DNA from: Escherichia coli
GTDB lineage: Bacteria; Pseudomonadota; Gammaproteobacteria; Enterobacterales; Enterobacteriaceae
Reading direction: 5' to 3' (one strand)
DNA length: 64,000 nt
Assembly: GCF_024298765.1 (NCBI RefSeq)
Contig: NZ_CP101210.1
Under the pieces are notes generated by a model. That model worked only from the letters and a program-made list of their open reading frames with translations, did not search any database and was not told the origin of the DNA. Positions 2,889 through 37,911 of the stretch are shown piece by piece (position 1 is the stretch's first letter; each line of letters opens with the position of its first letter). The position numbers were made by a program, and so were the translations under genes.

Positions 2889-4547
<1,659 letters not shown>

Positions 4548-4578
4548 TTAAATTCGTATGTTCAGTGTCGTGCGCGGA

Positions 4579-4923
<345 letters not shown>

Positions 4924-4929
4924 TTACGT

Positions 4930-4995: not shown

Positions 4996-5147
4996 AAAAT
5001 TCTGATCAGCACAAAATCGGGTGAAAACCCTGATTCACCTCACATTTCATCGCTATTTCTTCATCACCGTCATAAGCGAATCTGATTGTGCTACCATCGA
5101 AAATCTACGCAGTTGCCCAAAATTTGGGCGCAATCGGACATCAACCC

Positions 5148-6404: not shown

Positions 6405-6419
6405 TCCGGCGTTTCGGCA

Positions 6420-12932: not shown

Positions 12933-13008
12933 GCCCGGATAGCTCAGTCGGTAGAGCAGGGGATTGAAAATCCCCGTGTCCTTGGTTCGATTCCGAGTCC
13001 GGGCACCA
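12933..13008 (+). tRNA. pheU: tRNA-Phe (anticodon GAA)
   Basis: 76-nt sequence GCCCGGATAGCTCAGTCGGTAGAGCAGGGGATTGAAAATCCCCGTGTCCTTGGTTCGATTCCGAGTCCGGGCACCA; anticodon loop ATTGAAAAT; identical to remembered E. coli tRNA-Phe; pheU assignment from yjdC neighbourhood. Confidence 0.97.
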
Positions 13009-13205: not shown

Positions 13206-14468
13206 ATGGCACTGACTGACGCAAAAATCCGGGCTGCAAAGCACACTGACAAGGCTTATAAACTCACTGACGGGGCTGGCATGTTCCTGCTGGTACATCC
13301 TAATGGTTCCCGTTACTGGCGTCTCCGTTATCGTATTCTGGGTAAGGAGAAGACTCTGGCACTTGGTGTGTATCCAGAAGTTTCTCTCTCCGAAGCTCGT
13401 ACAAAACGGGATGAGGCCCGAAAACTGATTTCAGAGGGGATTGACCCTTGCGAACAGAAAAGAGTTAAAAAAGTAGTCCCTGATTTACAGCTCTCTTTTG
13501 AACATATTGCACGACGCTGGCATGCCAGTAATAAACAATGGGCACAATCACACAGCGATAAAGTACTCAAAAGCCTCGAGACACACGTTTTCCCCTTTAT
13601 CGGCAACCGGGATATCACAACACTCAATACCCCGGACCTGCTTATCCCTGTTCGTGCTGCAGAAGCAAAACAAATTTATGAAATCGCCAGTCGTCTGCAG
13701 CAAAGAATATCTGCTGTAATGCGTTACGCCGTACAGTCTGGCATCATCAGATATAACCCGGCTCTGGATATGGCTGGTGCATTGACCACGGTAAAACGCC
13801 AGCATCGCCCCGCTCTGAATCTTTCACGTCTGCCTGAACTTCTGTCGCGTATTAACAGTTATAAAGGTCAGCCTGTCACCCGGCTTGCTGTTATGCTGAA
13901 TTTACTGGTTTTTATTCGCTCCAGTGAACTCAGATATGCCCGCTGGGCTGAAATTGATATTGACAATTCAATGTGGACTATTCCAGCCGAACGCAAACCT
14001 CTGCCAGGGGTAAAATTCTCACACCGGGGCTCCAAGATGCGAACACCACATCTTGTGCCACTCAGCAAACAGGCTGTAGCCATACTGACAGAACTTCAGA
14101 CATGGGCTGGTGAAAATGGTCTGATCTTTACGGGAGCACATGACCCGCGTAAACCAATCAGTGAAAATACCGTAAATAAGGCCCTCAGAGTGATGGGGTA
14201 TGACACAACCAAGGAAGTCTGTGGCCATGGATTCCGGGCGATGGCGTGCAGTGCATTGATTGAATCAGGTTTGTGGTCCCGCGATGCTGTGGAACGTCAG
14301 ATGAGCCATCAGGAGCGTAATGGTGTACGTGCTGCGTATATCCATAAAGCAGAACATCTGGAAGAACGTCGACTGATGCTACAGTGGTGGGCAGATTTTC
14401 TGGATGCGAACAGAGATAAGGGTATCAGCCCGTTTGAATATGCAAAGATTAACAATCCATTAAAATAG
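13206..14468 (+). CDS. int: P4-type tyrosine integrase (genomic-island integrase)
   Basis: 420-aa ORF immediately 3-prime of tRNA-Phe; N-terminal MALTDAKIRAAKHTDKAYKLTDGAGMFLLVHPNGSRYWRLRYR typical of P4/CP4-57-type integrases; C-terminal catalytic region with H-x-x-R and terminal Tyr region. Confidence 0.9.
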   Translation: MALTDAKIRAAKHTDKAYKLTDGAGMFLLVHPNGSRYWRLRYRILGKEKTLALGVYPEVSLSEARTKRDEARKLISEGIDPCEQKRVKKVVPDLQLSFEHIARRWHASNKQWAQSHSDKVLKSLETHVFPFIGNRDITTLNTPDLLIPVRAAEAKQIYEIASRLQQRISAVMRYAVQSGIIRYNPALDMAGALTTVKRQHRPALNLSRLPELLSRINSYKGQPVTRLAVMLNLLVFIRSSELRYARWAEIDIDNSMWTIPAERKPLPGVKFSHRGSKMRTPHLVPLSKQAVAILTELQTWAGENGLIFTGAHDPRKPISENTVNKALRVMGYDTTKEVCGHGFRAMACSALIESGLWSRDAVERQMSHQERNGVRAAYIHKAEHLEERRLMLQWWADFLDANRDKGISPFEYAKINNPLK

Positions 14469-14919: not shown

Positions 14920-17900
14920 ATGGATGAAAATGCTTTAGGGTTTGCCTCATACTGGCGCAACTCGCTTGCGGACGCTGAGTCAGGAAAGGGCAGTTTTGAA
15001 CGGAAAGACGCCAAAAATTTCACTCATTGGCATGGGATAGCGGCGGGACGTCTTGACGAAGCGATTGTCAGTAAATTTTTTAAGGGAGAAAAAGACGATG
15101 TCGAAACGGTCGATGTCATCTTGCGCCCAAAAGTTTATTTCCGGTTACTGCAGCATGGTAAGGACCGTTCTGCAGGTGCGCCTGATATTGTTACCCCGAT
15201 AGTGACGCCAGCCTTGCTAAGCCGTGAGGGTTTTTTATATCCGACGCCAGCGACCTCCATTCCCAGAGACCTGCTTGAACCTTTGCCAAAAGGAGCATTT
15301 TCGATTGGTGAGATTGGGCAGTATGACAAATACAAGACGACCCATACCACGTTCTCTATCAACTTTGATGACAGCGTTGATAAGACTGCCGAAACGGATG
15401 AAGAACGGGAAGAACGATATGCAGCCTTGCAGCAGGAGTGGCGTCAATATCTGGATGATTCAGAGAGGCTGCTGAAGAACGTTGCCGGCGACTGGATTAA
15501 AAATCCTGAGCAATATGAACTCGCTGAGCACGGTTATATTGTTAAAACGGCGCAATCTGGCGGTGCCAGTTTCCATATCCTTTCTCTTTATGATCACCTG
15601 CTTGTTTGCAATAAGGATGTGCCGCTCTTCAATCGATTCGCCTCGCGAGAGGTTCATGCTGCAGAGTCTTTGCTGGCCCCTGGAGCAAAATTCAGCGACA
15701 GGCTTGGACACTCCGGAGATAAGTTTCCGCTGGCAAAGGCTCAGCGCGATGCCTTAAGCCATTTTCTGGATGCTAAACATGGCGATATCCTTGCTGTTAA
15801 TGGCCCTCCTGGAACCGGAAAAACCACGCTGGTGCTTTCTATCATCGCCACGCAGTGGGCCAGAGCGGCTCTCGAAAAATCTGAGCCTCCGGTTATTATC
15901 GCGACTTCAACGAATAACCAGGCTGTAACGAACATTATTGAGGCATTCGGGAAAGACTTTTCGCAAGGTTCAGGTGCGATGGCCGGGCGATGGTTGCCAG
16001 AGCTGAAAAGCTTCGGCGCTTATTTTCCCTCAGGCAGCCGTAAAGCTGAAGCAGCCAAAAAATATCAAACTGAAGATTTCTTCAACCAGGTTGAGTCAAA
16101 AGAGTATGTAGAAGATGCACTGCTGTTTTATCTGGAAAAGGCTAAGGCAGCCTTTCCTGAAAAAGAGTGTTCATCCCCTGAAAAGGTCATTGAACTCCTG
16201 CATGGTCAGTTGGCAGCAAAATCCGAGCAACTGATAAGACTGAACGCAACATGGCAAAAGTTAAGCCAGATTCGGGCTGCGCGTGAGCTTATTGCTAATG
16301 ATATTGAGCAATATCTCAATAATTTAAATAAATTACTTTCCGGACAAGAACAAAAAATCACTCTACTGAAGAGTGCTAAAACGGAATGGAAAAAATATCG
16401 CGCCGGTGAATCACTGATCTATTCATTATTTTCCTGGCTTCCGGCGGTTCGCAGTAAGCGACAGTACCAAATACAGCTGTTTCTCGAAGATAAATTAGGT
16501 GCGCTGATTGCAGGAAATCAATGGTCTGATCCTGAAACTATCGAACGTAATATTGATGGGCTGCTCAATTCCGCTGAGCGCGAGCAAACAACATACCGGC
16601 AGCAGATTGACTCCGCCCATGAAATCATTCTTAAAGAACAGCAGGCGGTTCAGGAGTGGCAGAGACTGGCTCTTGATTTAGGGTATGAGGGCGACGAGGA
16701 ACTGAGCTTCTCACAGGCCGATGAACTGGCTGATACGCAGATTCGCTTCCCTGCATTTTTACTGACGACTCACTACTGGGAAGGTCGTTGGCTGATGGAT
16801 ATGGCCAGCATTGATGATCTGCAGGAAGAGAAGAAGAAAAAAGGCGCTAAAGGGGTAACCGCCCGTTGGCAACGTCGAATGAAACTCACTCCATGTGTGG
16901 TGATGACATGCTATATGCTGCCCGGCAATATGCAGATAAGTGAGCACAAAGGACAGCGTAAATTCGAGAAAAGTTATTTGTATGATTTTGCCGATTTACT
17001 CATTGTCGATGAAGCCGGGCAGGTGCTTCCTGAAGTGGCTGCTGCCTCGTTTGCATTAGCTAAGAAGGCATTAGTGATTGGCGATACGGAGCAGATCCCG
17101 CCAATATGGAGTATTGCTCCTGCGATTGATATCGGTAACATGCTGGCGGAAAAAATTCTGTCTGGCAGTACGCAAGAAGAGATTACCGAGAAATATACGG
17201 CAATCGCAGACCTTGGTAAAAGTGCCGCATCTGGCAGCGTTATGAAAATAGCGCAGTTTGCTTCGCGCTATCAATATGATCCCGAACTGGCTCGTGGTAT
17301 GTACCTATATGAACACCGCCGGTGCTACGACAATATTATTGGATACTGTAATACGCTCTGCTATCACGGTAAGTTGTTGCCTAAAAGAGGGCGTGAAGAG
17401 AGCAATTTAATGCCCGCAATGGGGTATCTCCATATTGATGGTAAAGGAGAGCTGGCAAGTAGTGGAAGTCGATATAATTTGCTTGAGGCTGAAACGATAG
17501 CGGTCTGGTTGGCAGAGAACCAGCAAAATATTGAAGCGCATTACGGTAAATCGCTTCATGAAGTTGTCGGTATTGTGACGCCTTTTAGCGCTCAGGTATC
17601 CACTATCAAACAGGTGCTGGGCAAACAAGGTATCAGTACGGGCACGAATGAAAAGTCGCTCACAGTGGGCACCGTGCACTCTCTTCAGGGAGCGGAAAGA
17701 GCGATTGTGATATTCTCGCCAGTCTATTCAAAACATGAAGACGGCGGGTTTATTGATAGCGATAACAGCATGCTGAATGTTGCAGTCTCCCGTGCGAAGG
17801 ACAGTTTTCTGGTCTTCGGCGATATGGACCTGTTTGAGGTCCAGCCAGCCTCATCGCCACGGGGATTACTGGCAAAATACCTCTTTGAGTCAGAGAAGAA

Positions 17901-18435
17901 TGCGCTCTCTTTTGATTATAAAGAGCGTAAGGATTTAAAAACCGCCGGGACCAAAATCTACACACTTCATGGTGTGGAGCAACATGATAATTTCCTGAAT
18001 CAGACATTTGAAAATACCAGTAAACACATCACGATAGTTTCTCCATGGCTGACCTGGCAAAGGCTGGAGCAAACCGGTTTTCTTGATTCCATGATTGCGG
18101 CGTGTTCACGTGGAATTAACGTCACGATAGTCACTGACAGAAGCTACAACACTGAACATAATGATTTTGAGAAGCGAAAAGAGAAGCAGCAGAACTTTAA
18201 AGCGGCGCTGGAGAAACTGAATGCGCTGGGTATTGCTACAAAGCTGGTAAACCGTGTTCATAGCAAAATTGTTATTGGTGATGATGGTTTGCTGTGCGTG
18301 GGATCGTTCAACTGGTTTAGTGCGACACGGGAAGCGCGATATGAACGATACGATACATCAATGGTTTATTGCGGTGATAACCTGAAGGGTGAGATTGAGG
18401 CTATTTATAATAGTCTTGAGAGGCGGCAGGTTTAG
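14920..18435 (+). CDS. large SF1 (Upf1/DNA2-like) helicase fused to C-terminal PLD-family (HKD) nuclease; candidate single-gene anti-phage defence protein (Mokosh type II-like)
   Basis: 1171-aa ORF; Walker A GPPGTGKT at 15802..15825; Walker B-like LIVDEAGQ; motif VI-like [17 protein letters not shown]-terminal HxKxxxxD motif HSKIVIGDD at 18259..18285; first cargo gene after integrase. Confidence 0.7.
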
Positions 18436-18543: not shown

Positions 18544-20043
18544 TTATCTTCTGTCCGGAAGAATCAGAGGCTGTGGTTTCAGACTGTCTGCCGGTACATT
18601 CCTGTCTCCGTTAAAAACAATAACGGGTTCATTATCTTCGTCTGTCAGCGGATTGAATGGCGGTATATTTTCAGTACGAATGCCGGTCAGCCACTGAAAA
18701 ATACCTGCGAAATGACGGGCACTGATTTTTCTGCTGACGGACTGATGAGACGTGATGTCACTGGCGGTAATAATCAGGGGAACGCTGTAGCCTCCTTGTA
18801 TATGGCCATCATGATGAACAGGATTAGCACTGTCGCTGACCGACAGACCATGGTCAGAAAAGTAAAGCATGGCAAAATGACGGGAGTGCCGGCGAAGGAT
18901 ACCATCAAGCTGACCGAGAAAGTTATCCAGTTTACTGATGCTGGCGAGGTAACAGGCAATCTTTCGGGGATACTGCTCCAGGTAATGATTCGGCCAGGAG
19001 TTAAGTCGGTCACACGGATTCGGATGAGAGCCAATCATGTGCAGGAATATCACCTTCGGAGAGGATTTATCCGCCAGTGCACGTTCTGTTTCCTGTAACA
19101 ACAACATGTCATCCGTTTTACGGGAAGCAAAGCTGCCTTTCTTGAGGAAAACGGTATGCTCCGCATCAGAAGCAATAACAGAGATGCGTGTATCATGCTC
19201 CCCCAGTTTTCCCTGATTGGATATCCACCATGTGCTGTATCCTGCTTTTGCTGCCAGCGCCACCACGTTGTTGCCGGAGTCAGGGTTCTGCTCATAGTCA
19301 TAAATCAGTGTCCGGCTCAGGGAAGGTACGGTACTGGCTGCTGCCGATGTATAGCCGTCAATAAATAAACCGGGAGCCGTATTCAGCCATGGTGTGGTTG
19401 GCACGGGATAGCCATATACCGACATATAATCCCTGCGCACACTCTCACCAGTAACGATAACAATCGTGTCATACAACGGTGTTCCCGGCAGGATTTTCCA
19501 GTTGTCAGCCCCGTGCTGACTCAGTTGTTTATAACGCTGCATTTCACGCAATGTGTCAGTTGTTCCCACAACAATTCCTTTAACCATCCGCAACGGCCAG
19601 CTGTTTACAGAGCATAATACGAACAGCAGCAGTGCCAGCCAGTTACGGTGACCGCGGTGGTGTGTCCGCCAGAAAATCACCATGAATACCAGAATCGCGG
19701 CACTGACCAGAAAATGATAAACAGGAATCATCCCGGTAAACTCTGCAGCCTCATCAGCCGTGGTCTGCAGCAACGCGACAATAAAACTGTTGTTGATTTT
19801 ACCGTACGTCATACCCGCAGGCGCATACAGTGCACAACAGAACAGAAATAACAGCGTTGTAATGGATGTGAGGGTATTTCTGTGTGCAAGGAGCAGAAGG
19901 AGAAACAGAAGCAGCACATTTCCTGTGGCATTCTTCTCAGTGTATCCGCATGCAATTGTGGTTATCACAGAAATAACAAAAAAGAATAAAAACAATAAAA
20001 TCCGGGGTGTGTCGCCCGGACAAAACAGTTTTCTGATATTCAT
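18544..20043 (-). CDS. phosphoethanolamine transferase / sulfatase-superfamily inner-membrane protein (EptA/MCR-like family)
   Basis: 499-aa ORF; N-terminal multi-TM region then periplasmic domain with VTGESVRRDYMSVYGYP (cf. GE[T/S]AR nucleophile motif of EptA/MCR), HMIGSHPNP and FSDHG metal-site motifs. Confidence 0.7.
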   Translation of the reverse strand: MNIRKLFCPGDTPRILLFLFFFVISVITTIACGYTEKNATGNVLLLFLLLLLAHRNTLTSITTLLFLFCCALYAPAGMTYGKINNSFIVALLQTTADEAAEFTGMIPVYHFLVSAAILVFMVIFWRTHHRGHRNWLALLLFVLCSVNSWPLRMVKGIVVGTTDTLREMQRYKQLSQHGADNWKILPGTPLYDTIVIVTGESVRRDYMSVYGYPVPTTPWLNTAPGLFIDGYTSAAASTVPSLSRTLIYDYEQNPDSGNNVVALAAKAGYSTWWISNQGKLGEHDTRISVIASDAEHTVFLKKGSFASRKTDDMLLLQETERALADKSSPKVIFLHMIGSHPNPCDRLNSWPNHYLEQYPRKIACYLASISKLDNFLGQLDGILRRHSRHFAMLYFSDHGLSVSDSANPVHHDGHIQGGYSVPLIITASDITSHQSVSRKISARHFAGIFQWLTGIRTENIPPFNPLTDEDNEPVIVFNGDRNVPADSLKPQPLILPDRR

Positions 20044-20224
20044 CGGAGTATATCGACAACATTATTATGAAGAGAACAGGATAATAAAAATCAGAAATTA
20101 TCTGTAAAACAGATAACAGACAACCCTGCAGCAATAGACTGCAGGGTGTTTCTGTTTAATTGCAGAAGATATACAATTATATTAATTACAGAATATTCGT
20201 GATTATCTCTCGGGAACAGTGTTG

Positions 20225-20965
20225 TCAGAAGTTATAAGTCACACCAAGCATGATGTCATGACTTTTAACATCAACTTCTGACTTATATTTATCGCCCCAC
20301 TCGTCCTTGTAACTCACACTGCTGTCACCTGCATCAAGATAGCGATAGCTGAGGTCCAGAGCGATATCCGGGGTTACGTCATAGCGGACACCCGCGCCAA
20401 GGTTCCATGCGAAGTTGTCAGCAGAGCCTGAACGTGACAACGATTCGCGACCACTGCTTCCGTACTCATAATCCCAGGTACTGATACCGGTTGTTTTCTG
20501 GTGAATTCTGGCGTAGCCAATCCCTGCAGATATCCAAGGTGTGAATGCGCTGTCATTCCGGAAGTCATAGTACGCATTCAGCATTAGTGTGTTGACTGAC
20601 ACCTCATTCTTCAGGTCATCACGCCAGTAACCACCTGACCAACTGTCTTTATCTACGTTATACTTCGAATCAGCTTTTCCACGAGCGTAAAACTCCAGTT
20701 CTGTACGAACCGGAATACTGAACTGCGGATAAAAATCATAACCAGCCGCGATACCACCACTGAATACCGTATCATGGTCATCGCCGCCTTTATACTTTGA
20801 CGTTTCTTCCTCATCTCCTGACAGGAAACGCTGGTCTGAAAGTGACACCACAGAGGTACCGGCTTTACCGGTCAGATAAAAACCGCTTTTACCTTCCTCA
20901 GCACCTGCATTTGCTGCAAATACACAGGCTGCGGCCACCACTGAAACAGCAAAAACCTTTTTCAT
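20225..20965 (-). CDS. outer-membrane beta-barrel protein (OmpA-like transmembrane barrel family)
   Basis: 246-aa ORF; Sec signal peptide MKKVFAVSVVAAACVFAANA; alternating amphipathic beta-strands; C-terminal aromatic residue (GVTYNF) typical of OMPs. Confidence 0.7.
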   Translation of the reverse strand: MKKVFAVSVVAAACVFAANAGAEEGKSGFYLTGKAGTSVVSLSDQRFLSGDEEETSKYKGGDDHDTVFSGGIAAGYDFYPQFSIPVRTELEFYARGKADSKYNVDKDSWSGGYWRDDLKNEVSVNTLMLNAYYDFRNDSAFTPWISAGIGYARIHQKTTGISTWDYEYGSSGRESLSRSGSADNFAWNLGAGVRYDVTPDIALDLSYRYLDAGDSSVSYKDEWGDKYKSEVDVKSHDIMLGVTYNF

Positions 20966-21452: not shown

Positions 21453-21790
21453 TTATGCCGCTTCTTTTTCTGGATTCAGATAAACTGCCTGAATGAGTTC
21501 CCAGTCACGCAACTGTTTGCTCCAGCGCTCAGGATGACGCTTGCGAGCTTCGCGATAAACTTTTTTTCTGGCTTCCAGTATTTGTGCATCAATTCCGCGA
21601 TGGCGTTCATCCGGAGTAACATACTTAATACCGCTGTGCTTGTGTTCCAGGTTGTACCATTACGTGAACTTGCTTAACCAACTTCTGGCTTCATCTATGG
21701 TTCGAAAACCATTCTCCGGCCACCATGAACAATACTTAATCGTCCGGAAGAGCGATTCGGAATAAAGAAGTGTTACTGGCAGTTCTTTCA
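21453..21790 (-). pseudogene. remnant of IS3-family transposase OrfB (C-terminal part, in-frame stop)
   Basis: Minus-strand translation gives ...GFRTIDEARSWLSKFT*WYNLEHKHSGIKYVTPDERHRGIDAQILEARKKVYREARKRHPERWS..., typical integrase-core C-terminus, interrupted by a stop; no intact ORF. Confidence 0.5.
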
Positions 21791-21820
21791 TCGCATCAGT
21801 GAAAACCAGCAGGGCACTGC

Positions 21821-22162
21821 TCACCAGAGCAACACAGGAAAGTGAACCCGAACAAAAGTTCCTGTACCATTTTCTCCCAGCAGACGTGAGGCTTGTTCCA
21901 GTGACGCTGGTATACGTCCCAGCCGGACATCAAGTGCGCCGATGGCTATTGCCTGAAATCGCATCGTACAGCAAATCACCAACAGGACACCGACAGACAT
22001 TAAAGGTAACCCCCTGTAATCCAGTAGTTCCGACAGCCAGCGGTCATTTAGGGAGTCAGAAAACCAATCGCCAGAATCGTGCCCGGAAAGGCATAACCCA
22101 GCGACGCCCCTCTCATCACACCGCGCCTGAACAGTGGCATAGCGTTGAGGAATTCCGGGCAT
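21821..22162 (-). pseudogene. possible fragment of an ABC-transporter permease gene
   Basis: 113-aa ORF contains permease-like EAA-loop-type segment (IPASLEQASRLLG) but is far too short and lacks context. Confidence 0.25.
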
Positions 22163-22291
22163 TCCAGACTACGAGCAGACTGACAAAAATTACGACAAAG
22201 CGTTGAAGGAAGCCAGCGCGCGGACTGACAGGACTTTACCATAAAAACACAGGCTAACCGCGCCTGCGTTTTTAATGACGGATAAACAGAA

Positions 22292-24271
22292 TCAGGTGCC
22301 GATTATGCCGCCGTCGGCTTTTACGATAACGACAGTTGAGGAGCGCGGACGACCAGCCTTATCGCCGTCAGGCCAGCTTGATACTGCCGTCGGATGCTGC
22401 GGATCGCTAAGCCCTTCGCTTGGCTCGCCAGGGTGCTGGATGTTAATAAACAGCGTCCGGTTATCCGGAGTGAACGCGATGCCGGTGATTTCGCAGCCGC
22501 GCGGGCCGGTCAGGAAGCGGCGGAACTCATTGGTACCGGGGATCGTCGCCACCATCTGGTTGTTGCCCATGCCTTTGTAATCTTTACTATTGATGGTTGA
22601 TGACGACACGTCGGTCTGGATCCATAGCACGCCGCGGTGATCGAAGCTCAGGCCATCGGCGCTGCCGAATTCCGCCCCCTTCATGCTGCCTTTGGTTTCC
22701 GGTTTGTCCGTATCGGTGCGACCGCCCATCACAAGAATATCCCAGGCAAACTGCAGCGCGGTCGGGTCACCGTTATGCTCCAACCAGTGAATGATGTGGC
22801 CGTAAACGTTTTTGGCGCGCGGGTTGGCCGCATCCACTGGCGCTTTTCCTTCCTTACCGCGATCGCTGTTGTTGGTGAGCGTGCAGTAAACGCTGCCGGC
22901 GTGATATGGATCGACCGCAATCCACTCCGGGCGGTCCATTTTAGTGGCCCCCACGGCGTCTGCCGCCAGACGGGTTTTAATCAACAGGTCGCCCTGGTTT
23001 TCAAACCCTTTACTGGCGTCGAGCCCATTTTGTCCGAACACCAGCGGTAGCCACTCGCCTTTGCCGTCGTCGTTAAATTTCGCCACGTACAGAGTGCCTT
23101 TTTCCAGCAGGTGCATGTTGGCTTTGCGATCCTGCGGGTTGAATTTTCCTTCCGAGACAAATTTATATATGTATTCGAATTTCTGGTCATCGCCCATATA
23201 GACCACAACGCGGTTATCCGGGGCAATTGTCACCGCTGCGCCTTCGTGTTTGATGCGACCAAGCGCGGTGTGCTTGCGCGGCACTGAATGCGGATCGTAT
23301 GGATCGATTTCCACCACCCAGCCGAAGCGGTTCGGCTCGTTCGGCGTGGCGTCGACGCTGAACCTTTTATCCACTTCGTTCCAGCGGTAAGAGTCGTCGC
23401 TCCCGCTGATACCGTAACGTTTTTCCAGCGGGTTCATCTCTGCTTTTTTTACGAAAATATCGGACCAGTTCTCTTCACACGTCAGATAGGTGCCCCACGG
23501 CGTAAATCCGTTGGCACAGTTCTGCATGGTGCCGAGAATGATTTCGCCTTTCGGATCGTCAACTGTTTGCATCAGTGGGTTATGCAGCGCCGGACCGGTG
23601 ATTTTCATCGGCGTGTTAACGGTGATGCGGCGTGCGAAAGATGACGGGCGCACCACTTCCCAGCCCAGGGGCACTTTTTTTACTTCAATGACCGACACGC
23701 CCATCGCGTTCTGGCCTTTAAGAGCTTTATCGGCGCTCCAGTTGGCATCGCCATCTTTAAACAGTAGACCGTTATCGATGTATTCATGGTTTATGGCAAG
23801 CAGGCCGTGATCGGAGCTGTTCCCGCCCTGCGGCAGGCTAAACCACGCCATGCCGTCGTGGTGCATCCCGGCCTGCGCCGCCTGTTCTTCCGTGGTGTTG
23901 CTACCGTCGGTTTTAAAAACCGGCAGATTTCCGGCAATCCCGGTGGCGTCGCCCCATTTGTAGAAGGGCTTCGCGATGTATCCTTCCGGCACGATAACGG
24001 TATCTTCCGTGGAAACCGGCAGGCTGGTGAAACCGAGCGTCGTCGCTTTGCCGAGGTTACCGCTTGCTTTGGAGACCACTTTCGCCAGCGCGTTTTCCTG
24101 TTTCAGCAGAAATGGGAACGCTGCCGCGGCACCGGCGACCGTGCCTGCCTGTAACAGACGGCGGCGTGACAAATAGACTTCCGCCACCTGCGAAAACGCG
24201 CGGTTATCGCTCGGGTTACTGATTTCTTCACTATGCTCACGTTTGAATAAAGTTTTTAACGGTCTGCCCAT
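22292..24271 (-). CDS. phoX: Tat-secreted PhoX-family alkaline phosphatase (DUF839-like)
   Basis: 659-aa ORF; twin-arginine signal (SRRRLLQAGTVAGAAAAF); overall resemblance to PhoX family by memory. Confidence 0.6.
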   Translation of the reverse strand: MGRPLKTLFKREHSEEISNPSDNRAFSQVAEVYLSRRRLLQAGTVAGAAAAFPFLLKQENALAKVVSKASGNLGKATTLGFTSLPVSTEDTVIVPEGYIAKPFYKWGDATGIAGNLPVFKTDGSNTTEEQAAQAGMHHDGMAWFSLPQGGNSSDHGLLAINHEYIDNGLLFKDGDANWSADKALKGQNAMGVSVIEVKKVPLGWEVVRPSSFARRITVNTPMKITGPALHNPLMQTVDDPKGEIILGTMQNCANGFTPWGTYLTCEENWSDIFVKKAEMNPLEKRYGISGSDDSYRWNEVDKRFSVDATPNEPNRFGWVVEIDPYDPHSVPRKHTALGRIKHEGAAVTIAPDNRVVVYMGDDQKFEYIYKFVSEGKFNPQDRKANMHLLEKGTLYVAKFNDDGKGEWLPLVFGQNGLDASKGFENQGDLLIKTRLAADAVGATKMDRPEWIAVDPYHAGSVYCTLTNNSDRGKEGKAPVDAANPRAKNVYGHIIHWLEHNGDPTALQFAWDILVMGGRTDTDKPETKGSMKGAEFGSADGLSFDHRGVLWIQTDVSSSTINSKDYKGMGNNQMVATIPGTNEFRRFLTGPRGCEITGIAFTPDNRTLFINIQHPGEPSEGLSDPQHPTAVSSWPDGDKAGRPRSSTVVIVKADGGIIGT

Positions 24272-24693
24272 TGCGGTTTCCTTTCAAAAAATCGATTTCA
24301 AGGGGAATCATTTTTATGCACGTGAGTCTACGGAAAGATTGTTACGGAAATATAACAATTGTCATAAAAAACCGGCGATAAAATCATCTATGGTCGGGAC
24401 GCGGTTTCAGGTATGATGTGAGGCTAGAATTCTGAACGCTCTCTTTTGTTGAGCATATATGGACGTCCCAGATGAGGCAAGTACTGGTTCGATGCGGTTT
24501 GCGACCATATATCCGGCGTCGTTAGTAGGTTCAATGACCTGCGCCATGATGTTATCCGGGCCCTATTTCCTAATCACTACACCGGTATTTGATTACCCAG
24601 GTCAACTTCAGACTGTTACAGGGGCGGTAGCCGTTATCTCATCAGTGAATGTAAACTCAGTTAAAAATATTTTCTATAACTTACTGTTTTTCT

Positions 24694-31006: not shown

Positions 31007-31036
31007 GCCTGTGTCCATATTACGTGGGTAGGATCA

Positions 31037-31685
31037 CTAAGCCAGGAATTAAGTCATTTAAAGATATTTCAAATTCACTGGCAATCGTATCTAATCCTTC
31101 CTTATCAATAGATTCAAGCCATAAATTATAATCAATAGGAAGAAGCAACGGATGAGTAAAGTTCAATCTATTTACTAAAGATGATTTAGTATACTCATCA
31201 TTACTTAGCTCTCCAATAAATTCATTATTTATAGAAACAGCATAGTTCTTTATATATGCTGCTCTGTGCAATTGTGACCATGCGATTTTAAACTCTACAT
31301 AAACCTTTTCAGTTTCATCTGCAATGTCTTTCATTTTTATAAAATGAATATCGAAAATATCACCAAGTTCTTCTAAATATGTTTTATATTCTACACCTAT
31401 TGTTTGTTCAGGATCGAAACCGATACCAATAGTAATTACATTATTCAGATCCCCATTATGGACTAGAGATCTAAATCCATCTATGCGCCTGTTCCCCATA
31501 GCTTCTAAATATATAGGATCACACTGCTCACGGTCTAATATTTGTTGAAGATAAAATAATGCAATTAAAATAGTAGTCTTGCCCGCGCTGTTTGGCCCCA
31601 ATAGTAATGTTACAGGTGCAAAATCAATTTCCTGCCGCTCTCTAACAGATCTGAAATTTTCAAGTACAAGTTTAGTTAATTTCAT
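31037..31685 (-). pseudogene. AAA/ABC-type ATPase gene (OLD/Abi-like N-terminus) truncated at 3-prime end by IS3
   Basis: N-terminus MKLTKLVLENFRSVRERQEIDFAPVTLLLGPNSAGKTT (Walker A); ORF runs into the IS3 terminus after about 215 codons. Confidence 0.65.
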
Positions 31686-31693
31686 AATGAACC

Positions 31694-32800
31694 TTACATG
31701 AAATATTTATTCGATAGGTTTGATGCTAAAAGTTGAAGTTGCATTGCGCTTTTATCATAAATGCTTAGTCCTTTTTTTATTTTTTTATAAATAATCTCAT
31801 ACTCATCTTGTAGATGCTTAGGTGGGATTAATATCTCTATATTCTGCAATTCCTGTGCATTAATATTAGCCATGCCAACAATACTTTTACACATATTCAT
31901 CAATGTGATTTTGCCATGGATGGAATTAAGATACCCTGAAATATAGTAGTTATTTCCGATAGAATTAGGTCTAACGCGGATTAAATATCCAGCAAATGCC
32001 ATAGGCCTGTCTTCTTCATACACAGCTGTTTTACCAACAAGTTCCTTACTGTTAGTACGATTGAAAAGAAGATCGCCTTCTTTAACCAAATATTTATCCT
32101 TTTCTTTTACACTGAGATCAAGATATTTTAAATCTGTAAAATCCCACCTACCTTGATATGTTATATTACCCATCCGTAATATAGGATATTCACCAGAATC
32201 AATAGAGGCTTTTGCTGAAGTTCCATAATTTACTGAATCAACCAAGTCGCGAATCGTTCCTTTCGGGAAACGATGTATGTTGTTTGCAGGAGTTCCAAAC
32301 ATCTCTAGAAACTTAGCCCGCAAAAAATCATCAGCCAGTTTGATGGCTTGTTCGCGTTTTTGGCGTATACCCTCAGCTTTATCGAGAAGATCCACAATTC
32401 GTTTCTGCTCTTCAAAAGGTGGTAATTTAATAAATGTATCATAGAGATCGTCTCTATTTAATCCAGGAATACTTGTGGTAATCGTTTTCTTAGTGAGATC
32501 AATTCCGCTCAGAATATAAAACAAGTATCGGAGATCTAACTTATTATTATCTTTGATCTCAACGTAATAAGCAGTATCAATGATCCAACCTCCGTCAGGA
32601 GCCCAGGTAATAGCACCAACGCTGCCTTTGCGACCAATAATTATCGTGGGATAGCTGCAAAGCGTTTTATCGTGGTTGCCGACAATTCCTGAACTACCAA
32701 AAACATGGACACTTCCATTCGATACTCGCTGATCAGCTTTTAATGCTTTTCCGTAGTGAACATTAATAACATCCCCTAACTTCACCATCGCCGAACTCAC
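31694..32800 (-). CDS. hsdS: type I restriction-modification specificity subunit HsdS
   Basis: 368-aa ORF overlapping hsdM stop by 4 nt; two target-recognition-domain-like halves; operon position. Confidence 0.8.
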   Translation of the reverse strand: MSSAMVKLGDVINVHYGKALKADQRVSNGSVHVFGSSGIVGNHDKTLCSYPTIIIGRKGSVGAITWAPDGGWIIDTAYYVEIKDNNKLDLRYLFYILSGIDLTKKTITTSIPGLNRDDLYDTFIKLPPFEEQKRIVDLLDKAEGIRQKREQAIKLADDFLRAKFLEMFGTPANNIHRFPKGTIRDLVDSVNYGTSAKASIDSGEYPILRMGNITYQGRWDFTDLKYLDLSVKEKDKYLVKEGDLLFNRTNSKELVGKTAVYEEDRPMAFAGYLIRVRPNSIGNNYYISGYLNSIHGKITLMNMCKSIVGMANINAQELQNIEILIPPKHLQDEYEIIYKKIKKGLSIYDKSAMQLQLLASNLSNKYFM

Positions 32801-34431
32801 AGCATACCCTCCAGCTCATCCAGATCCGCCAGAATTTCTTTTTCCAAATCTTTTAAGCGCTTTAGTATCACCTTCGGATCTTCATATTCCTCCGCCTGAT
32901 ACACCACTTCTTTATAACGATTGATAGAGAGATCGTATTTCTGCGCAGCAATATCCGCTTTCGGTACAACAAACGCCGCCTGCGTGCGATCTTTAAAATC
33001 AACGCCAGCATCAATCCCTTCCGGGTACTGCTGTTTAAGCAACGAGGCTAACTTCTCACCCATAAAGTTATCAACCGGTAGCCCGCGTAAAGTACGGTAA
33101 TGCTTCCAGCTTGCCAGCAGATGCGGCAGATCGTTGTCTTTTATCGGGTTGCGCTTATCATCCAGGCTGTAGCCATCATTTTGCAGATCGTAGAACCAGA
33201 CCTCATCCGTTTGACCGCCTTTGGTAAAGATCAGGATCGCCGTCGCCACGCCAGCGTAAGGTTTAAATACACCAGAAGGCAGATTGATCACCGCTTCCAG
33301 TTGGTTATCTTCCACCAGCGTTTTGCGAAGTGACTGGTGCGCCTTGCTGGAGCCAAACAGCACGCCCTGCGGCACGATAGTGGCACTGCGCCCGCCCACT
33401 TTCAGCATTTGCAGAATACGCGCCAGGAACAGCAGTTCGGTTTTTTTGGTTTTCACCATTGCCGACAACGTGGAGTCGATATCTTCCTCGTCCAGTGAAC
33501 CGGTAAAAGGCGGGTTCGCCAGAATCAGATTGAAAGCGTTTTTACTGGCCTGAGGGAAGTTAGTGCTGAAGCTCTGGCTCATGGTGTCCTGATAGTGAAT
33601 ATCCGGCGCTTCCACACCGTGCATAATCAGGTTCATAGCGGCGATACGCAGCATGGTGGTATCAAAATCGTAACCGTGGAACATATTGTTATCTACATGG
33701 TTACGCCACGGTGTCAGCAGATCGCCGGTAAAGATTTTTTGCTCTTCCAGTTCGCCACGTTCGTTGGTGCCAATCTCAGTATGGATGGATTCCAGCGAGC
33801 TGTACTTCTCCAGAAGATATTCATAGCTGGTTGCCAGAAAACCACCGGTGCCACAGGCGGGATCACAAATCGTCTCGCCGCGGGCCGGGTTCGGCTCCAT
33901 CATTTCAACCATCGTGCGGATAATGTGGCGCGGCGTGCGGAACTGACCGTTGATTCCGGCAGTGGTCAGCTTGCTTAACAGGTATTCGTAAAGGTCGCCT
34001 TTGGTGTCGCCACGATCCAGCGGCAGGTTTTTGATCACCTCAACCGCTTTGGTCAGTAATGACGGCTTAACAATCTCCAGACGAGCATCTTTCATAAAGT
34101 TGCCCAGCAGCGTCACCTTCGACGCATCGGCCTGGCCAAGCTGACGAAAATGCTGGAATACGCCATCGCGCACCACTTCCATCATCTCATCCGAGCCAAG
34201 ATTGCTATAGTGACTGAAACGGAACTCCTGCTGTTCTGGCGCAAAACGCGGTTTAAAATCAATTCCCGCGATTTGTTTACGCTTCTCGTCGCGTTGTTCC
34301 TGGGTATCCAGCATCCGGGAATACATCAGATAGGTGATCTGTTCGATTACGGTCAGCGGGTTGGTGATACCACCCACCCAGAAATCTTCCCACAGGCCGT
34401 CGATTTTACTTTTTAAGTCACCAGTGATCAT
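32797..34431 (-). CDS. hsdM: type I restriction-modification N6-adenine DNA methyltransferase HsdM
   Basis: 544-aa ORF; SAM-binding [10 protein letters not shown] and catalytic NPPF motifs. Confidence 0.9.
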
Positions 34432-34494
34432 TGTTAGCGTTTATATCCTGTTTTAAATACAAAAGCCCCGCTGTCGGGGCTTGTCATGTGCGTA

Positions 34495-37400
34495 TTATAC
34501 CGTCGCTGCGTCGGTCACAACACCCAGCTCTTCGACTATCTTTTGCAGGCGGGCGATCTGCTCTATATCCGGGAACACACCGGTAACGCCTTCGTTGTGG
34601 ATATGCGTAAAAGGCTGTTCAAAGAGCTGCCGCATTTCAATGGTGCCGTAATCGCGAATGTGGTTTTTCAGCAATGACAGGAAGCGCAGTTGTTGGCTGG
34701 TCAGACTGTTATCAGCGGCGAACTGAGCAAAGCGCACTTCCACCGCGTCGCTGTCCATCCCGATGATGGTACGCAAAAGTTTATCCAGGCTGGCAGTTGC
34801 CTGCGGATAGAACTCTTTCAGTGCCCGGATATCAACGTTGGGGTTCTGGATCAGCACCAGCTTCGCCAGCTCATCCAGCTCGTTTTGCGTGACTGGCTCA
34901 CCGTTGCGGATTTTCTTCAGCACCGGATTTTGCTGGAACAGCGGCTCCAACGCTCCCTGAACCTGCTGGCGATAGAGTTTGAAATCAATCGAGCGGATAT
35001 TAGTTTTGCGGGTCTCTGTCTGGATCAGGTTCGCATCTTCGGTAATATCTACCTGTATCGAACCAAATTTTGGCGTCGCGTCTTTTTCCATCAGGTGCAT
35101 GATGCCGCGCAGATGAATGCGGATATCTTCCAGCTCTTCCAGGCTGGCCTGCTTCCACCAGCCTAAATCACGAAGCTGATTGATCCGCGGTCCTTGCTGT
35201 TGGACCTGCGCCAAATGCGGCGGCAGGCGCTCCACTTTTTCGACGATGACCGGCCAGAGCACATCCAGCTCTTCCGGGTTGGTATAACGGGCAGTTTGCG
35301 CCGCCAGAATATCCATATCAAAGCGCATAGCGTCGCTTTGCCCGCGCACGTCCAGCCACTGCATCAGCGGGGCCAGGACAGATAGCAAATCCTGCTGTGT
35401 TTTCGGGGAAAGCTGGCGCAGCACTTTTTCATCGCTGTACTGCGCTTTTTGATGCCACTTTTCCTGGACGGCAATCGACTTTTCATCCAGTGCATTGATT
35501 TGCTCGCGTAGCTGGTGAGCAACTAAATCCACCGCCTGTTTGTCGAATTTACGTTGCGCAGCGGCCCCCAGCATAACCCACGCTTCGAAGCGTTTTTGTG
35601 CAAGCGATTTTGTCGCTGTGACTTCGGCCTCTTCGGTATGCAGTTCGTGATACTCAAAATTGCCCCAGTGATCGAAAATGCGGAATTTCTGTTTATCCAG
35701 AGGTTTGCCGTTATCGTCGTAACCGTACAACCCCGGACAGAGGCGCGTACCACGGCCAATCATCTGCCAGAACTTCACTTTTGATTTGACCGGTTTGGCA
35801 AAGACCAGATTCACAATTTCCGGGACATCAATACCGGTATCGAGCATGTCAACGGAGATAGCGATGGTCAGCTCTTTGTTGGTGCTTTCATCCAGCCCTT
35901 TAAAATCATCAATCAGTTGCTCGGCGCGGGGATCGTAATTGTCGATGACCTGGCAGAAGCGCCCGGCAAACTGCGGGTACATATCGTCGAATAATTCATT
36001 CAACAGCAGCGCGTGTTTGTGGTTACGGGCGAAAATGATGGTTTTACCTGGCAACTGGCCGTCCCGATCTTTCAGGCCATTTTCCATCAGGTTACGCAGG
36101 ATATAGCGGTTGGTGTCTTTGTTGTAGATCGCCTCATCCAGCGCCTTGCCATCAAACTCCAGCGTATTGGGATCTATGCCTTGTTCTTCCAGCTCGCGGA
36201 TTTGTGCGTCGCTTAATTTCTCCCGTTTGATGCCTTCGCGCAGGAATTCTGTGGTGTGCGTGACAACCTCATAGGGAACCAGATTGTTATCGGCGATGGC
36301 ATCTTCCAGGCTGTAGTTGGCGGTAGGAATACGTCCTTCACAACCAAACAGGCCGAAAGTGGTTTTACTCACCATGTCAATCGGCGTGGCCGTCAGGCCA
36401 ATCTGGAGGGCATCAAAATACTTAAACAGATCGCCGTAAACGTTGTAGATAGAGCGATGGGATTCATCGGCGATGATCAAATCGAAATAACCAACATCGA
36501 AATGGTCCATGATTTTCATCATACCAGGATAGGTGGCGATGTAGATCCTAGCATTCTGCCTGTCTGCTTTTTTCGATTTCCCGACCACATACAGCGGCTC
36601 ATTGGTGAATTGATTAAAGGCATTCGCCGCCTGTTTACGTAGTTCCTTGCGGTCGCAAAGAAACAGGACGCGTTTTACCCAGCGGGCATCAATCATCAGT
36701 TTGCTTAGCGCTATTGCCACGCGGGTTTTGCCTGTACCCGTAGCCTGAACAATTAGCGATTGCCGGTATTTGTTGGTAAACCGCTCGCTGACACGGGCAA
36801 TGGTTTCAAGCTGGTACAAACGTCCGGCAACGGCCTTACCTTCGTTATCTTTTACGTGCGGCACACTGTTCAGCGGAAGACGGGTTTCACGCTGTTGAAT
36901 AAGATATTGCAGGCTTTCCTTGCTGTAGAAGCCAAACACCCGACGCGGGGGATAACCATGAGTTTTATGGTCATCCCACAGCCAGATATCATAGCCGTTG
37001 GTGTAGAAGATGATCGGACGCTGGCCGTATTCTTTTTCCAGCCAGTCTGCATACAGCCGGGCCTGAATTCGTCCTTGCTCGGCATTGACGCTGGTTTTTT
37101 TTGCTTCCACCACCGCCAGCGGTTTGTGTGCCTCATCCCACAAGACATAGTCCGCATAACCGTCTCCGGTCGCGGTAGGTTGTTCTTTAACGGGATGTTC
37201 CTGCGTAACCTGATCGGTATTTTTAAGGCCTTCGCCTACATTCCAGTCAGCAGCAAGCAGGCGAGAGTCAATCAGGCGACGGCGGGTTTCCGCTTCATCA
37301 ATAGAGAGAATATCGGCAACATGCTGGTTACGCGCTCTGGCTTCATTCAGGCGTTGAGTGAGGTGTTCGGCCTTTTCCTGTTCTTGCTGTAGTGCGCGTT

Positions 37401-37911
37401 GCAGCGCCAGTTCGCGCTCACGGCTTTCATCCTGAGCCCTGATTGCATCTTCCAGACGTTTTTCATCTGCACGACCTGAAGATTGTGTTAATGGAGGGAG
37501 TGTAAATTTGGGGCAGTCATCAACATTACCGTGGGCGTAGCGAACATACAGCCAAATTCCCAACAAATACGCTTCTTTGAGCAGCCAGTAAGTATCTTTA
37601 GCTTTGATACGTCCGCCGTGCGCGGCACGGTTGCCATGGATACGCAGCGCATCCATTTTCATGATGATGGCTTCCGGCATCATGCTGGTAAAGACATCAG
37701 CATTCATTAAATCGTAAAGATTAGCCTTAATACCTTCCGGCAACCGCTCCTGACGATACAACCAGCGCACCATCAATTCGGTGTAGTTGCGCAGCTTGAC
37801 CAGACAGCTTTCCGGATCGGAGTGAACATAGCGTTCCGCCATACACGCGAGTTCAGCCAGTTCCGGCCACTGGCTGCGCAACATTTCAAAATTGAGAGAC
37901 TGCTCCATCAA
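34495..37911 (-). CDS. hsdR: type I restriction enzyme endonuclease/helicase subunit HsdR
   Basis: 1138-aa ORF; PD-(D/E)xK-like segment (DYVLWD...VVEAKK), SF2 helicase motifs (ATGTGKT, DESH); upstream of hsdM on same strand. Confidence 0.9.
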   Translation of the reverse strand: MMEQSLNFEMLRSQWPELAELACMAERYVHSDPESCLVKLRNYTELMVRWLYRQERLPEGIKANLYDLMNADVFTSMMPEAIIMKMDALRIHGNRAAHGGRIKAKDTYWLLKEAYLLGIWLYVRYAHGNVDDCPKFTLPPLTQSSGRADEKRLEDAIRAQDESRERELALQRALQQEQEKAEHLTQRLNEARARNQHVADILSIDEAETRRRLIDSRLLAADWNVGEGLKNTDQVTQEHPVKEQPTATGDGYADYVLWDEAHKPLAVVEAKKTSVNAEQGRIQARLYADWLEKEYGQRPIIFYTNGYDIWLWDDHKTHGYPPRRVFGFYSKESLQYLIQQRETRLPLNSVPHVKDNEGKAVAGRLYQLETIARVSERFTNKYRQSLIVQATGTGKTRVAIALSKLMIDARWVKRVLFLCDRKELRKQAANAFNQFTNEPLYVVGKSKKADRQNARIYIATYPGMMKIMDHFDVGYFDLIIADESHRSIYNVYGDLFKYFDALQIGLTATPIDMVSKTTFGLFGCEGRIPTANYSLEDAIADNNLVPYEVVTHTTEFLREGIKREKLSDAQIRELEEQGIDPNTLEFDGKALDEAIYNKDTNRYILRNLMENGLKDRDGQLPGKTIIFARNHKHALLLNELFDDMYPQFAGRFCQVIDNYDPRAEQLIDDFKGLDESTNKELTIAISVDMLDTGIDVPEIVNLVFAKPVKSKVKFWQMIGRGTRLCPGLYGYDDNGKPLDKQKFRIFDHWGNFEYHELHTEEAEVTATKSLAQKRFEAWVMLGAAAQRKFDKQAVDLVAHQLREQINALDEKSIAVQEKWHQKAQYSDEKVLRQLSPKTQQDLLSVLAPLMQWLDVRGQSDAMRFDMDILAAQTARYTNPEELDVLWPVIVEKVERLPPHLAQVQQQGPRINQLRDLGWWKQASLEELEDIRIHLRGIMHLMEKDATPKFGSIQVDITEDANLIQTETRKTNIRSIDFKLYRQQVQGALEPLFQQNPVLKKIRNGEPVTQNELDELAKLVLIQNPNVDIRALKEFYPQATASLDKLLRTIIGMDSDAVEVRFAQFAADNSLTSQQLRFLSLLKNHIRDYGTIEMRQLFEQPFTHIHNEGVTGVFPDIEQIARLQKIVEELGVVTDAATV

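Follow-up and report, generated by a model that had tools for sequence, protein, structure and literature searches.

A PhoX-family phosphatase gene carried on a pheU genomic island of Escherichia coli

The region considered here is a stretch of 64,000 nucleotides of Escherichia coli DNA, referred to below as the window. Its minus strand carries phoX, an intact gene whose position is given in Table 1 together with those of the surrounding features. The product matches the protein annotated as 'PhoX family protein' in strains 135 and XB2 with 100% identity. Because RefSeq has already given this name to an identical protein, the gene is less novel than the first-pass annotation of this DNA implied. 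A literature search on PhoX in E. coli, PhoX in pheU islands and PhoX in Enterobacteriaceae returned no paper on this gene and no experimental work in E. coli.

The gene is located some 9 kb into a genomic island integrated at pheU, in which accessory genes are found beyond the integrase. It is cargo of this tRNA-integrated island, as had been proposed, on the combined evidence of the tRNA-Phe gene and integrase, its presence in 98 of 5,426 complete E. coli genomes (∼2%, many from poultry) and its atypical composition, with a GC content of 56% and a GC3 of 67% against a GC content of ∼46–47% in the adjacent 2-kb windows. The surrounding island is heavily decayed, and phoX forms an isolated cassette with an IS graveyard on one side and a permease pseudogene on the other. 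This pseudogene separates phoX from a gene for an outer-membrane (OMP) β-barrel protein; an EptA-like PEtN transferase is also among the island neighbours.

Table 1. Features of the phoX locus and its island (window coordinates).
Feature	Position	Strand	Remarks
tRNA-Phe (pheU)	12933..13008	plus	Island integration site; ARAGORN
Integrase	~13206-14468		Follows tRNA-Phe; annotated context dicD-dsbD-cutA / tRNA-Phe / integrase
Iron ABC transporter permease fragment	21765..22196	minus	Frameshifted internal pseudogene per RefSeq in collinear strains
Putative Cronobacter-like acquired segment	22197..24371	minus	Promoter, phoX and terminator only; blastn 92.1% to Cronobacter-like chromosome (L005)
Intrinsic terminator	22241..22266	minus	Hairpin CAGGC-GCGGTTA-GCCTG with A-run/U-run extension, then UGUUUUUAU; 25-50 nt past the stop codon
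phoX CDS	22292..24271	minus	659 aa, ATG start, intact ORF; product identical to RefSeq WP_029400569.1
PhoX catalytic domain	22427..24034	minus	Residues 80-615; Pfam domain envelope
Predicted Tat signal peptide	24083..24271	minus	Codons 1-63; 33-residue pre-RR extension, SRRRLL, h-region, ALA↓K
Shine-Dalgarno sequence GAAAGGAAA	24277..24285	minus	AAGGA core 7 nt before ATG; read from the sequence
Candidate -10 hexamer TAGACT	24325..24330	minus	10 nt downstream of the Pho box
Pho-box-like element TTGTTATATTTCCGTAAC	24341..24358	minus	-87 to -70 from ATG; 4 mismatches to CTGTCATAWAWCTGTMAY

Assignment of the product to the PhoX family is based on full-length similarity. The Pfam profile PF05787 (PhoX, formerly DUF839; curated cut-off 24 bits) matches with 554 bits (E = 6e-166) over profile positions 2–515 of 515. 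The structure of Pseudomonas fluorescens PhoX (PDB entry 3zwu) is recovered by phmmer with an E-value of 9e-168 over residues 70–658, and BLASTP against the same protein gives 47% identity and 61% positives over 585 residues (74–658); the identity is 49% in a MAFFT-based alignment. The first-pass annotation had described a 659-residue product resembling PhoX/DUF839 and had suggested an HMM search; the reading frame is exactly as described, on the minus strand, which that annotation had left unstated, and the search places the protein in the PhoX family and in no unrelated family of Tat substrates. Given 47% identity over its full length to 3zwu, the protein is expected to adopt a six-bladed β-propeller, and any other fold is very unlikely.

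The alignment maps C252, E343, D361/D362 and D446/R447/E449 of the island protein onto C179, E273, D291/D292 and D384/R385/E387 of the P. fluorescens enzyme. C179 and E273 are reported to belong to the active site (Yong et al. 2014). The literature also assigns D292 and R385 to the active site (PMC11098088). For the positions checked, which cover a subset of the cofactor ligands, the equivalent residues are invariant in 115–116 of 116 family sequences.

The first 63 codons encode a predicted Tat signal peptide, and the twin-arginine signal noted by the first-pass annotation is plainly recognizable. The motif S-R-R-R-L-L occupies residues 35–40 (RR at residues 36–37, window 24161–24166), the extension that precedes it is conserved among homologues, and the h-region, QAGTVAGAAAAFPFLL, which follows is mildly hydrophobic (mean Kyte–Doolittle value 1.35). 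The signal-peptidase site is predicted after residue 63, and alignment with homologues reveals no lipobox cysteine in the signal region. An alternative is that the protein leaves the cytoplasm by Sec or stays there, the RR motif being incidental. The Pfam TAT_signal profile scores 16.7, below its gathering threshold of 22.7, and the motif has L at the consensus F position, both of which are in keeping with this alternative. However, the NCBIfam model TIGR01409 (TAT_signal_seq) scores 17.8 against a cut-off of 16.7, and RR is retained in 115/115 aligned homologues within the context S-R-R-x-[FL]-[LM]-Q, with the AxA motif likewise conserved. The low hydrophobicity of the h-region is typical of Tat signals, and an enzyme loaded with a cofactor is expected to fold ahead of export. 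Moreover, relatives are proven Tat substrates, as shown by experiment for PhoX of Campylobacter jejuni (PMC3197622), and Tat export has been described for the PhoX family (PMC11098088). Taken together, these points leave the Sec or no-export alternative with next to no likelihood. We infer that PhoX is a Tat substrate, for which both the cleavage site and the export route are predicted.

In the promoters of the Pho regulon, an 18-bp box formed by two CTGTCAT-like direct repeats with 11-bp phasing replaces the -35 element and lies about 10 bp before the -10 element. This geometry is present in the phoX leader, in which a Pho-box-like element is followed by a candidate -10 hexamer. Taken alone, the half-site score of the element (9/14) is at chance level, and inference of a Pho box is therefore based on conservation across genera rather than on the window sequence by itself. 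In 8/8 native or ancestral loci the best Pho-box match within 200 nt upstream of the gene is located at -70 to -102 with 2–4 mismatches; with up to three mismatches allowed, chance matches are expected at 1.8e-5 per position, which amounts to 0.003 sites per upstream window. Furthermore, in 7/7 enterobacterial loci among these eight the box is followed by a 10-nt spacer and TAnnCT, the hexamer occurring at this same spacing in the Cronobacter-like, Franconibacter, Klebsiella, Enterobacter, Buttiauxella and Shimwellia loci. A scan of the window with CTGTCATAWAWCTGTMAY allowing up to three mismatches gave a single chance-level match at 8103 and none near phoX; the element was missed because it carries four mismatches, including a derived T-to-C change. 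A σ70 scan found no strong canonical promoter, as expected where a promoter depends on an activator, although such a result does not in itself speak for one. The conserved box, spacer and -10 hexamer point to putative control of phoX by PhoB. At the other end of the gene, the terminator folds with -19.3 kcal/mol (z = -4.1 relative to shuffled sequences) and was also matched by a pattern scan at 22250–22266.

The derived C is located at window position 24346, which is position 13 of 18 of the Pho box and belongs to its second half-site. The ancestral T is present in the Cronobacter-like, plasmid and AR_0085 alleles. Induction could be weaker for the window allele with its four-mismatch box. A stronger form of this idea is that the enzyme is intact while the window allele is poorly expressed or not expressed at all, the ∼100-bp leader being weakened for PhoB binding by the T-to-C change and the gene persisting as near-silent hitch-hiking cargo. 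The window box does have four mismatches where most native loci have two or three, the first half-site is entirely absent from the plasmid alleles, in which it has been lost at an upstream rearrangement breakpoint, and the decay of the island around phoX would suit such a fate. On the other hand, the C allele outnumbers the T allele (84 places compared with 32), some genomes such as NZ_CP033635.1 hold both alleles, and native Buttiauxella and Shimwellia boxes have the same CCGT in a half-site; the variant is therefore tolerated in promoters that are presumably functional. The coding sequence also argues against silence. The reading frame is intact in all chromosomal copies among the matches listed, even though island neighbours are pseudogenes. 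Purifying selection acts on the gene, with dN/dS values of 0.063 relative to the Cronobacter-like allele and 0.13 relative to the plasmid alleles (overall range 0.04–0.14); among island alleles dN/dS is 0.04, a value derived from 8–9 nucleotide differences only and hence weak evidence. We thus assign a small though appreciable chance to a near-silent allele, and regard a gene that is expressed and PhoB-controlled as the better reading.

The origin of the gene is reflected in the extent of its DNA homology. Similarity to a Cronobacter-like chromosome is confined to 2.2 kb, that is, phoX with about 100 bp on each side, and homology to plasmid pEA8_2 (93.8% identity) has nearly the same boundaries (22193–24355). 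At the protein level, identity is 96% to the Cronobacter universalis cluster, 81% to Franconibacter and 76–78% to Klebsiella and Enterobacter. Horizontal acquisition, as suggested earlier, is thus supported, with 92% identity to the Cronobacter-like DNA and the contrast in GC content; phoX appears to have been acquired as a single-gene unit from a Cronobacter-like enterobacterium. The chromosomally encoded proteins of Cronobacter, Franconibacter, Klebsiella and Enterobacter, named 'PhoX family phosphatase' in RefSeq, share with the island protein a common length, the pre-RR extension and the Tat motif, and their genes share the layout of Pho box and -10 hexamer; the window box differs in having the derived C. 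The native neighbourhoods of phoX differ in every genus examined, and in these four they are ordinary chromosomal settings unlike the island cassette of the window. In the Cronobacter-like contig the gene lies by iol/MFS and metNIQ-like genes, in Franconibacter it is near DUF7480 and GH15, and in K. pneumoniae and Enterobacter it is accompanied by an integrase and a ZnuA/ABC-3 metal transporter. The last arrangement suggested that phoX might be linked in function to the adjacent permease in the window. This was rejected because only a frameshifted internal fragment of the permease gene is present, which is located beyond the donor-derived segment and whose ORF has no Pfam match.

The plasmid-borne copies of E. 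coli and E. albertii (for example on pEA8_2 and pRM14721) represent the same gene, but differ from the window allele by 34–36 amino acids. On pRM14721, phoX is paired with an intact gene for a phytase-like esterase, which also accompanies phoX in strain 135; a tblastn search of the window with this esterase gave no match. It can be imagined that phoX, with the esterase on some replicons, constitutes a small mobile module for organophosphate scavenging, carried by plasmids and by islands of the pheU type in E. coli strains that are mainly poultry-associated, that its Fe/Ca-dependent and zinc-independent phosphatase suits a calcium/phytate-rich or zinc-restricted gut, and that the common T-to-C allele has retuned phoX expression or partly uncoupled it from PhoB. 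We consider this proposal as a whole unlikely, while granting it some weight.

The neighbours of phoX bear on its substrate as well. The presence on the island of adjoining genes for an OMP β-barrel and an EptA-like PEtN transferase raises the alternative that PhoX does not act on general phosphomonoesters and is instead a diesterase, a nucleotidase or an envelope-modifying phosphatase, possibly working with these two proteins; characterized PhoX enzymes do take varied substrates, such as pNPP, AMP and phosphocholine (PMC11098088, Table 1). Against this, donor and plasmid homology ends about 100 bp from each side of phoX and the neighbours were not co-inherited with it, the permease pseudogene intervenes before the OMP gene, and the variation in native context from genus to genus argues for a stand-alone enzyme. 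Because the active-site residues match those of a characterized monoesterase, and the conserved Pho box suits phosphate scavenging, a different substrate class is rather improbable. The reading that we prefer is that phoX encodes a functional PhoX-family alkaline phosphomonoesterase. As part of a joint best explanation which includes Tat export, PhoB control and a Cronobacter-like origin, it is given a probability of roughly 0.85.

Comparison with known phosphatases helps to place the predicted enzyme. The P. fluorescens Pf0-1 protein (PDB entries 3zwu, 4a9v, 4a9x and 4alf), reportedly crystallized by Yong et al. 2014 (Science 345:1170), belongs to the same Pfam family, is homologous over its full length with conserved active-site residues and likewise has an N-terminal twin-arginine signal. 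It differs from the island protein at 53% of residues and by several short indels, among them a deletion of 8 residues around position 400 and an insertion of 11 residues close to the C-terminus, and its gene is a chromosomal member of the Pho regulon, whereas the window gene resides on a mobile island. PhoA of E. coli is a Zn/Mg enzyme that is exported by Sec and requires periplasmic disulfide formation. Both PhoA and PhoX would be periplasmic phosphomonoesterases expected to be induced by phosphate starvation, yet they are unrelated in fold and family, PhoX being predicted to use Fe/Ca and Tat. PhoA is encoded in 5,425 of the 5,426 complete E. coli genomes. Thus phoA is core and phoX accessory, and PhoX adds to PhoA without replacing it, in agreement with the first-pass annotation. 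The distant PhoX homologue of the epsilonproteobacterium C. jejuni (Cj0145), which contributes to phosphate metabolism (PMC3197622), is the sole alkaline phosphatase of its organism. The E. coli strains with phoX include many avian-pathogenic or poultry isolates and some human lineages such as ST38.

A mechanism can be proposed by projecting the known functions of the family onto the sequence features described above. Under phosphate starvation, phosphorylated PhoB would bind the Pho box and activate the promoter from its position 10 nt upstream of the -10 hexamer. The 659-residue precursor would fold in the cytoplasm and take up the Fe3+/Ca2+-oxo cofactor of the family, after which the SRRRLL signal would direct it, already folded, to TatABC for export, and signal peptidase I would cut after ALA63. 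The mature β-propeller enzyme of ∼64 kDa would then hydrolyse organic phosphomonoesters in the periplasm, and Pst would take up the phosphate set free. In evolutionary terms, a 2.2-kb monocistronic unit would have passed from a Cronobacter-like enterobacterium to E. coli, where it now resides in the pheU island with related alleles on plasmids, and a minority of strains would have gained a zinc-independent second alkaline phosphatase beside core PhoA. The interpretation originally offered for this locus is supported as a whole; in it, enzymatic activity, bound metals, dependence on Tat and regulation by PhoB are read from homology.

As a finding, the gene is ordinary. The PhoX family, its cofactor, export route and regulation are well established elsewhere, the RefSeq name is already correct, and no new question is opened. 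Its practical relevance lies in screens of wild strains that use phoA reporters or BCIP. The locus also offers a clean natural case in which a whole promoter–gene–terminator unit has apparently passed from one enterobacterial genus to another together with an intact Pho box. A Tat-exported Fe/Ca enzyme could work under zinc withholding by the host or when DsbA-dependent folding of PhoA fails. For E. coli, the textbook organism of PhoA, the distribution of phoX means that about 2% of complete genomes encode a second, mechanistically unrelated alkaline phosphatase, which would modestly widen the phosphate-scavenging repertoire of the species.

The phoX reading frame lies exactly where the first-pass annotation had placed it (see the table), and its product genuinely belongs to the PhoX family, with the chromosomal PhoX proteins of Cronobacter and related Enterobacteriaceae as its orthologues. 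The PhoX/DUF839 resemblance suggested for it is borne out by the profile search that had been proposed: the product matches Pfam PF05787 (PhoX) over profile positions 2-515 of 515 (554 bits, E 6e-166), and among all PDB sequences it comes closest to PhoX, the alkaline phosphatase of P. fluorescens (3zwu and related entries; residues 70-658, E 9e-168), the BLASTP alignment of 585 residues showing 47% identity with 61% positives. D292 and R385 are active-site residues of PhoX (PMC11098088). This published numbering is the chain index of 3zwu, D292 being the D in YMGDD and R385 the R in MDRPEW; the equivalents in the island protein are D362 and R447. Yong et al. 2014 reportedly described C179 and E273 of P. 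fluorescens PhoX as cofactor ligands, and both are kept, as C252 and E343, along with the adjoining acidic residues D361, D446 and E449. In a partial ligand check covering C252, E343, D361, D362, D446, R447 and E449, each residue was kept by 115-116 of the 116 family members in the alignment.

The twin-arginine signal read earlier in the sequence is confirmed. The motif is followed by the h-region QAGTVAGAAAAFPFLL (mean hydropathy 1.35) and then by KQENALA/K, and the signal scores above the curated cut-off of TIGR01409 (17.8 versus 16.7) and below that of Pfam TAT_signal (16.7 versus 22.7). All of the 115 homologues (115 of 115) keep the RR pair; conservation extends to the AxA site, and the signal has no lipobox cysteine. 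Tat export has been demonstrated for C. jejuni PhoX (PMC3197622) and the family is described as Tat-exported (PMC11098088); by analogy, the island protein would take the same route, and export by Sec is very unlikely. The 33 residues before RR, MGRPLKTLFKREHSEEISNPSDNRAFSQVAEVY, are conserved from Enterobacteriaceae to Neisseriaceae (pattern ..ISNxSxNxxFSxV..), which supports the annotated start codon. The n-regions of signal peptides are not usually conserved in this way, and the segment might be where a chaperone or proofreading factor contacts the precursor carrying its cofactor.

Positions of phoX, its signals and the surrounding island features
Feature	Window position	Strand	Remark
tRNA-Phe	12933-13008		neighbours dicD-dsbD-cutA
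1,171-aa helicase/PLD protein	14920-18435	plus	
PEtN transferase and OMP genes	18544-20965	minus	
phoX ORF	22292..24271	minus	ATG start, 659 codons; ORF listing
Counterpart of 112-bp fragment	23298-23409		phoX nt 863-974
phoX codons 1-33	24173-24271		
Twin-arginine motif S-R-R-R-L-L	residues 35-40 of PhoX	minus	sequence and alignment
Candidate Pho box, window allele TTGTTATATTTCCGTAAC	24358-24341	minus	cross-genus comparison
Type I restriction-modification system	31020-37908		
CDI remnant	38005-41760		
Microcin H47 cluster	~45266-52800		

The neighbours of the tRNA-Phe gene identify the site as pheU. The island runs from an integrase through a helicase/PLD-nuclease-like AAA protein, a phosphoethanolamine (PEtN) transferase, an OMP and an iron-permease pseudogene to phoX, followed by IS3/IS66/IS1 debris, a type I restriction-modification system, a cdiA-CT/cdiI remnant and the microcin H47 cluster. 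The window is collinear with XB2 except for a 9.4-kb deletion and one absent IS3, and its match to strain 135 ends at window 28371. In the 1,171-aa protein adjoining the integrase, helicase domains of superfamily 1 (AAA_11/AAA_12) are joined to a PLD-like nuclease domain at the C-terminus, a domain arrangement that resembles that of defence or nuclease-helicase proteins. The restriction-modification system, flanked by the IS debris on one side and the CDI remnant on the other, comprises an AAA ATPase, hsdS, hsdM and a DEAD/DEAH helicase R subunit. The deletion relative to XB2 took cdiB and most of cdiA; the C-terminal toxin part of cdiA and a YezG-family immunity gene are left as an orphan toxin/immunity remnant. 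The microcin cluster (mchF exporter, HlyD-family partner, mchB, mchI, mchS3) was assigned by collinearity with the XB2 annotation. The EptA-like transferase (Sulfatase and EptA_B_N, 499 aa) and the adjacent 246-aa OMP beta-barrel protein are both intact cargo, and a second, truncated PEtN transferase lies further along the island of strain 135. Another substrate for PhoX, or a role tied to these two neighbours, is unlikely, because their genes are not co-inherited with phoX.

The 2-kb neighbourhood of phoX has 55.6% G+C versus about 46-47% on both sides (the gene itself 56%, GC3 67%). Outside Escherichia, the closest proteins are those of the Cronobacter universalis cluster (96% identity), Franconibacter (81%) and Klebsiella/Enterobacter/Kosakonia (76-78%). 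In Cronobacter, Franconibacter, Klebsiella and Enterobacter the gene occupies ordinary chromosomal contexts, different in each genus, whereas in the window it sits on the pheU island. A Cronobacter-like contig shares 92.1% DNA identity over window 22197-24371 only, that is, the gene with 100 bp upstream and 95 bp downstream, which upholds the horizontal origin proposed in the first-pass annotation; for the copies on E. coli and E. albertii plasmids the identity is 93.8% over 22193-24355. This short segment is a complete transcription unit, with a Shine-Dalgarno sequence in the leader, the ORF, and a terminator 25-50 nt past the stop (hairpin and U-run, -19.3 kcal/mol, z -4.1). Full-length phoX occurs in 98 of 5,426 complete genomes, and both junctions are common to all 94 chromosomal copies at >=99.3%, evidence that the gene was probably acquired once and then spread together with its island. 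Among the 57 chromosomal records listed, a rough tally of hosts gives about 27 chicken or poultry and 17 human, an impression of poultry bias. About 375 further E. coli records, among them the BL21/C41(DE3) lineage (C41(DE3) locus, 5001-5112) and many plasmids, hold an internal 112-bp fragment of phoX, 90-93% identical, which bears the annotation of an 'alkaline phosphatase' pseudogene and lies beside a RelE-toxin fragment and an autotransporter; these fragments therefore indicate an earlier entry of phoX into the E. coli mobilome, followed by decay.

Neighbouring genes elsewhere also deserve mention. Plasmid pRM14721 (locus positions 3085-6682) carries phoX and an intact gene annotated 'esterase-like activity of phytase' in tail-to-tail arrangement. 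Some 25 kb (approximate) from its phoX, the pheU island of strain 135 has a 93%-identical copy of the esterase gene (15242-16585), together with a ugpB disrupted by a frameshift. The esterase gene is absent from the window by tblastn. The pairing may be a sign of cargo for organophosphate scavenging that recurs. A ZnuA/ABC-3-type metal ABC transporter follows phoX in Klebsiella (K. pneumoniae loci L008/L009, 4560-10826) and Enterobacter (1501-4974), and a phage-type integrase precedes phoX in K. pneumoniae; in these genera, the placing of a metal importer beside an enzyme that depends on iron and is exported by Tat may have functional significance.

No Pho box was found near phoX by a plain consensus scan, and the best leader element, taken alone, scores at chance level. 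Across genera, however, eight of eight native or ancestral loci (E. coli T allele, Cronobacter-like contig, Franconibacter, K. pneumoniae, Enterobacter, Buttiauxella, Shimwellia and Snodgrassella) have their best match to the consensus, searched over 200 nt upstream, at -70 to -102 and with 2-4 mismatches; the pooled background for <=3 mismatches is 1.8e-5 per position (about 0.003 per upstream window). In all seven enterobacterial loci a 10-nt spacer and then a TAnnCT hexamer come after this element, the remaining leader not being conserved; Snodgrassella has tandem phased half-sites instead. Box, 10-nt spacer and hexamer form the classic geometry of PhoB-activated promoters. In the second half-site of the candidate box the window carries a minus-strand C at 24346, which is derived; T occupies this position in the Cronobacter-like locus, in the plasmids and in E. 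coli AR_0085. In SNP-anchored searches C turned up at 84 places, spread over 74 genomes, and T at 32 places in 32 genomes; some genomes (e.g. NZ_CP033635.1, PK8261 and GF4) hold one of each and therefore two phoX-bearing elements. Since native Buttiauxella and Shimwellia boxes likewise contain a CCGT half-site, the change in this candidate PhoB site may be tolerated. An expression-attenuated or silent allele is possible, given the C in the candidate box and the truncated context, but these natural half-sites, the universal intactness of phoX and purifying selection on it argue against this (dN/dS 0.063 versus the Cronobacter-like allele and 0.13 versus plasmid alleles; among island alleles about 0.04, based on only 8-9 differences).

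The observation of the first-pass annotation is thus confirmed and its interpretation, a Tat-dependent PhoX-type phosphatase, supported. Alongside the sequence features observed, characterised homologues suggest every functional step by analogy: phosphate starvation would activate PhoB and switch on the phoX promoter; the precursor would fold in the cytoplasm and load its Fe3+/Ca2+-oxo cofactor; the folded enzyme would be exported by Tat and cut by signal peptidase after Ala63; and in the periplasm it would hydrolyse phosphomonoesters, delivering phosphate to Pst. The gene is already known by annotation, RefSeq naming the identical protein (WP_029400569.1, 'PhoX family protein', 100% identical, in strains 135 and XB2). 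Literature searches found no paper on phoX in E. coli, so experimental characterisation is apparently lacking. The sequence of the island phoX holds nothing unexpected, and the suggestion that PhoX adds to PhoA agrees with the genomes: phoA is present in 5,425 of the 5,426, phoX in the 98, and PhoX is therefore an extra enzyme, not a replacement.
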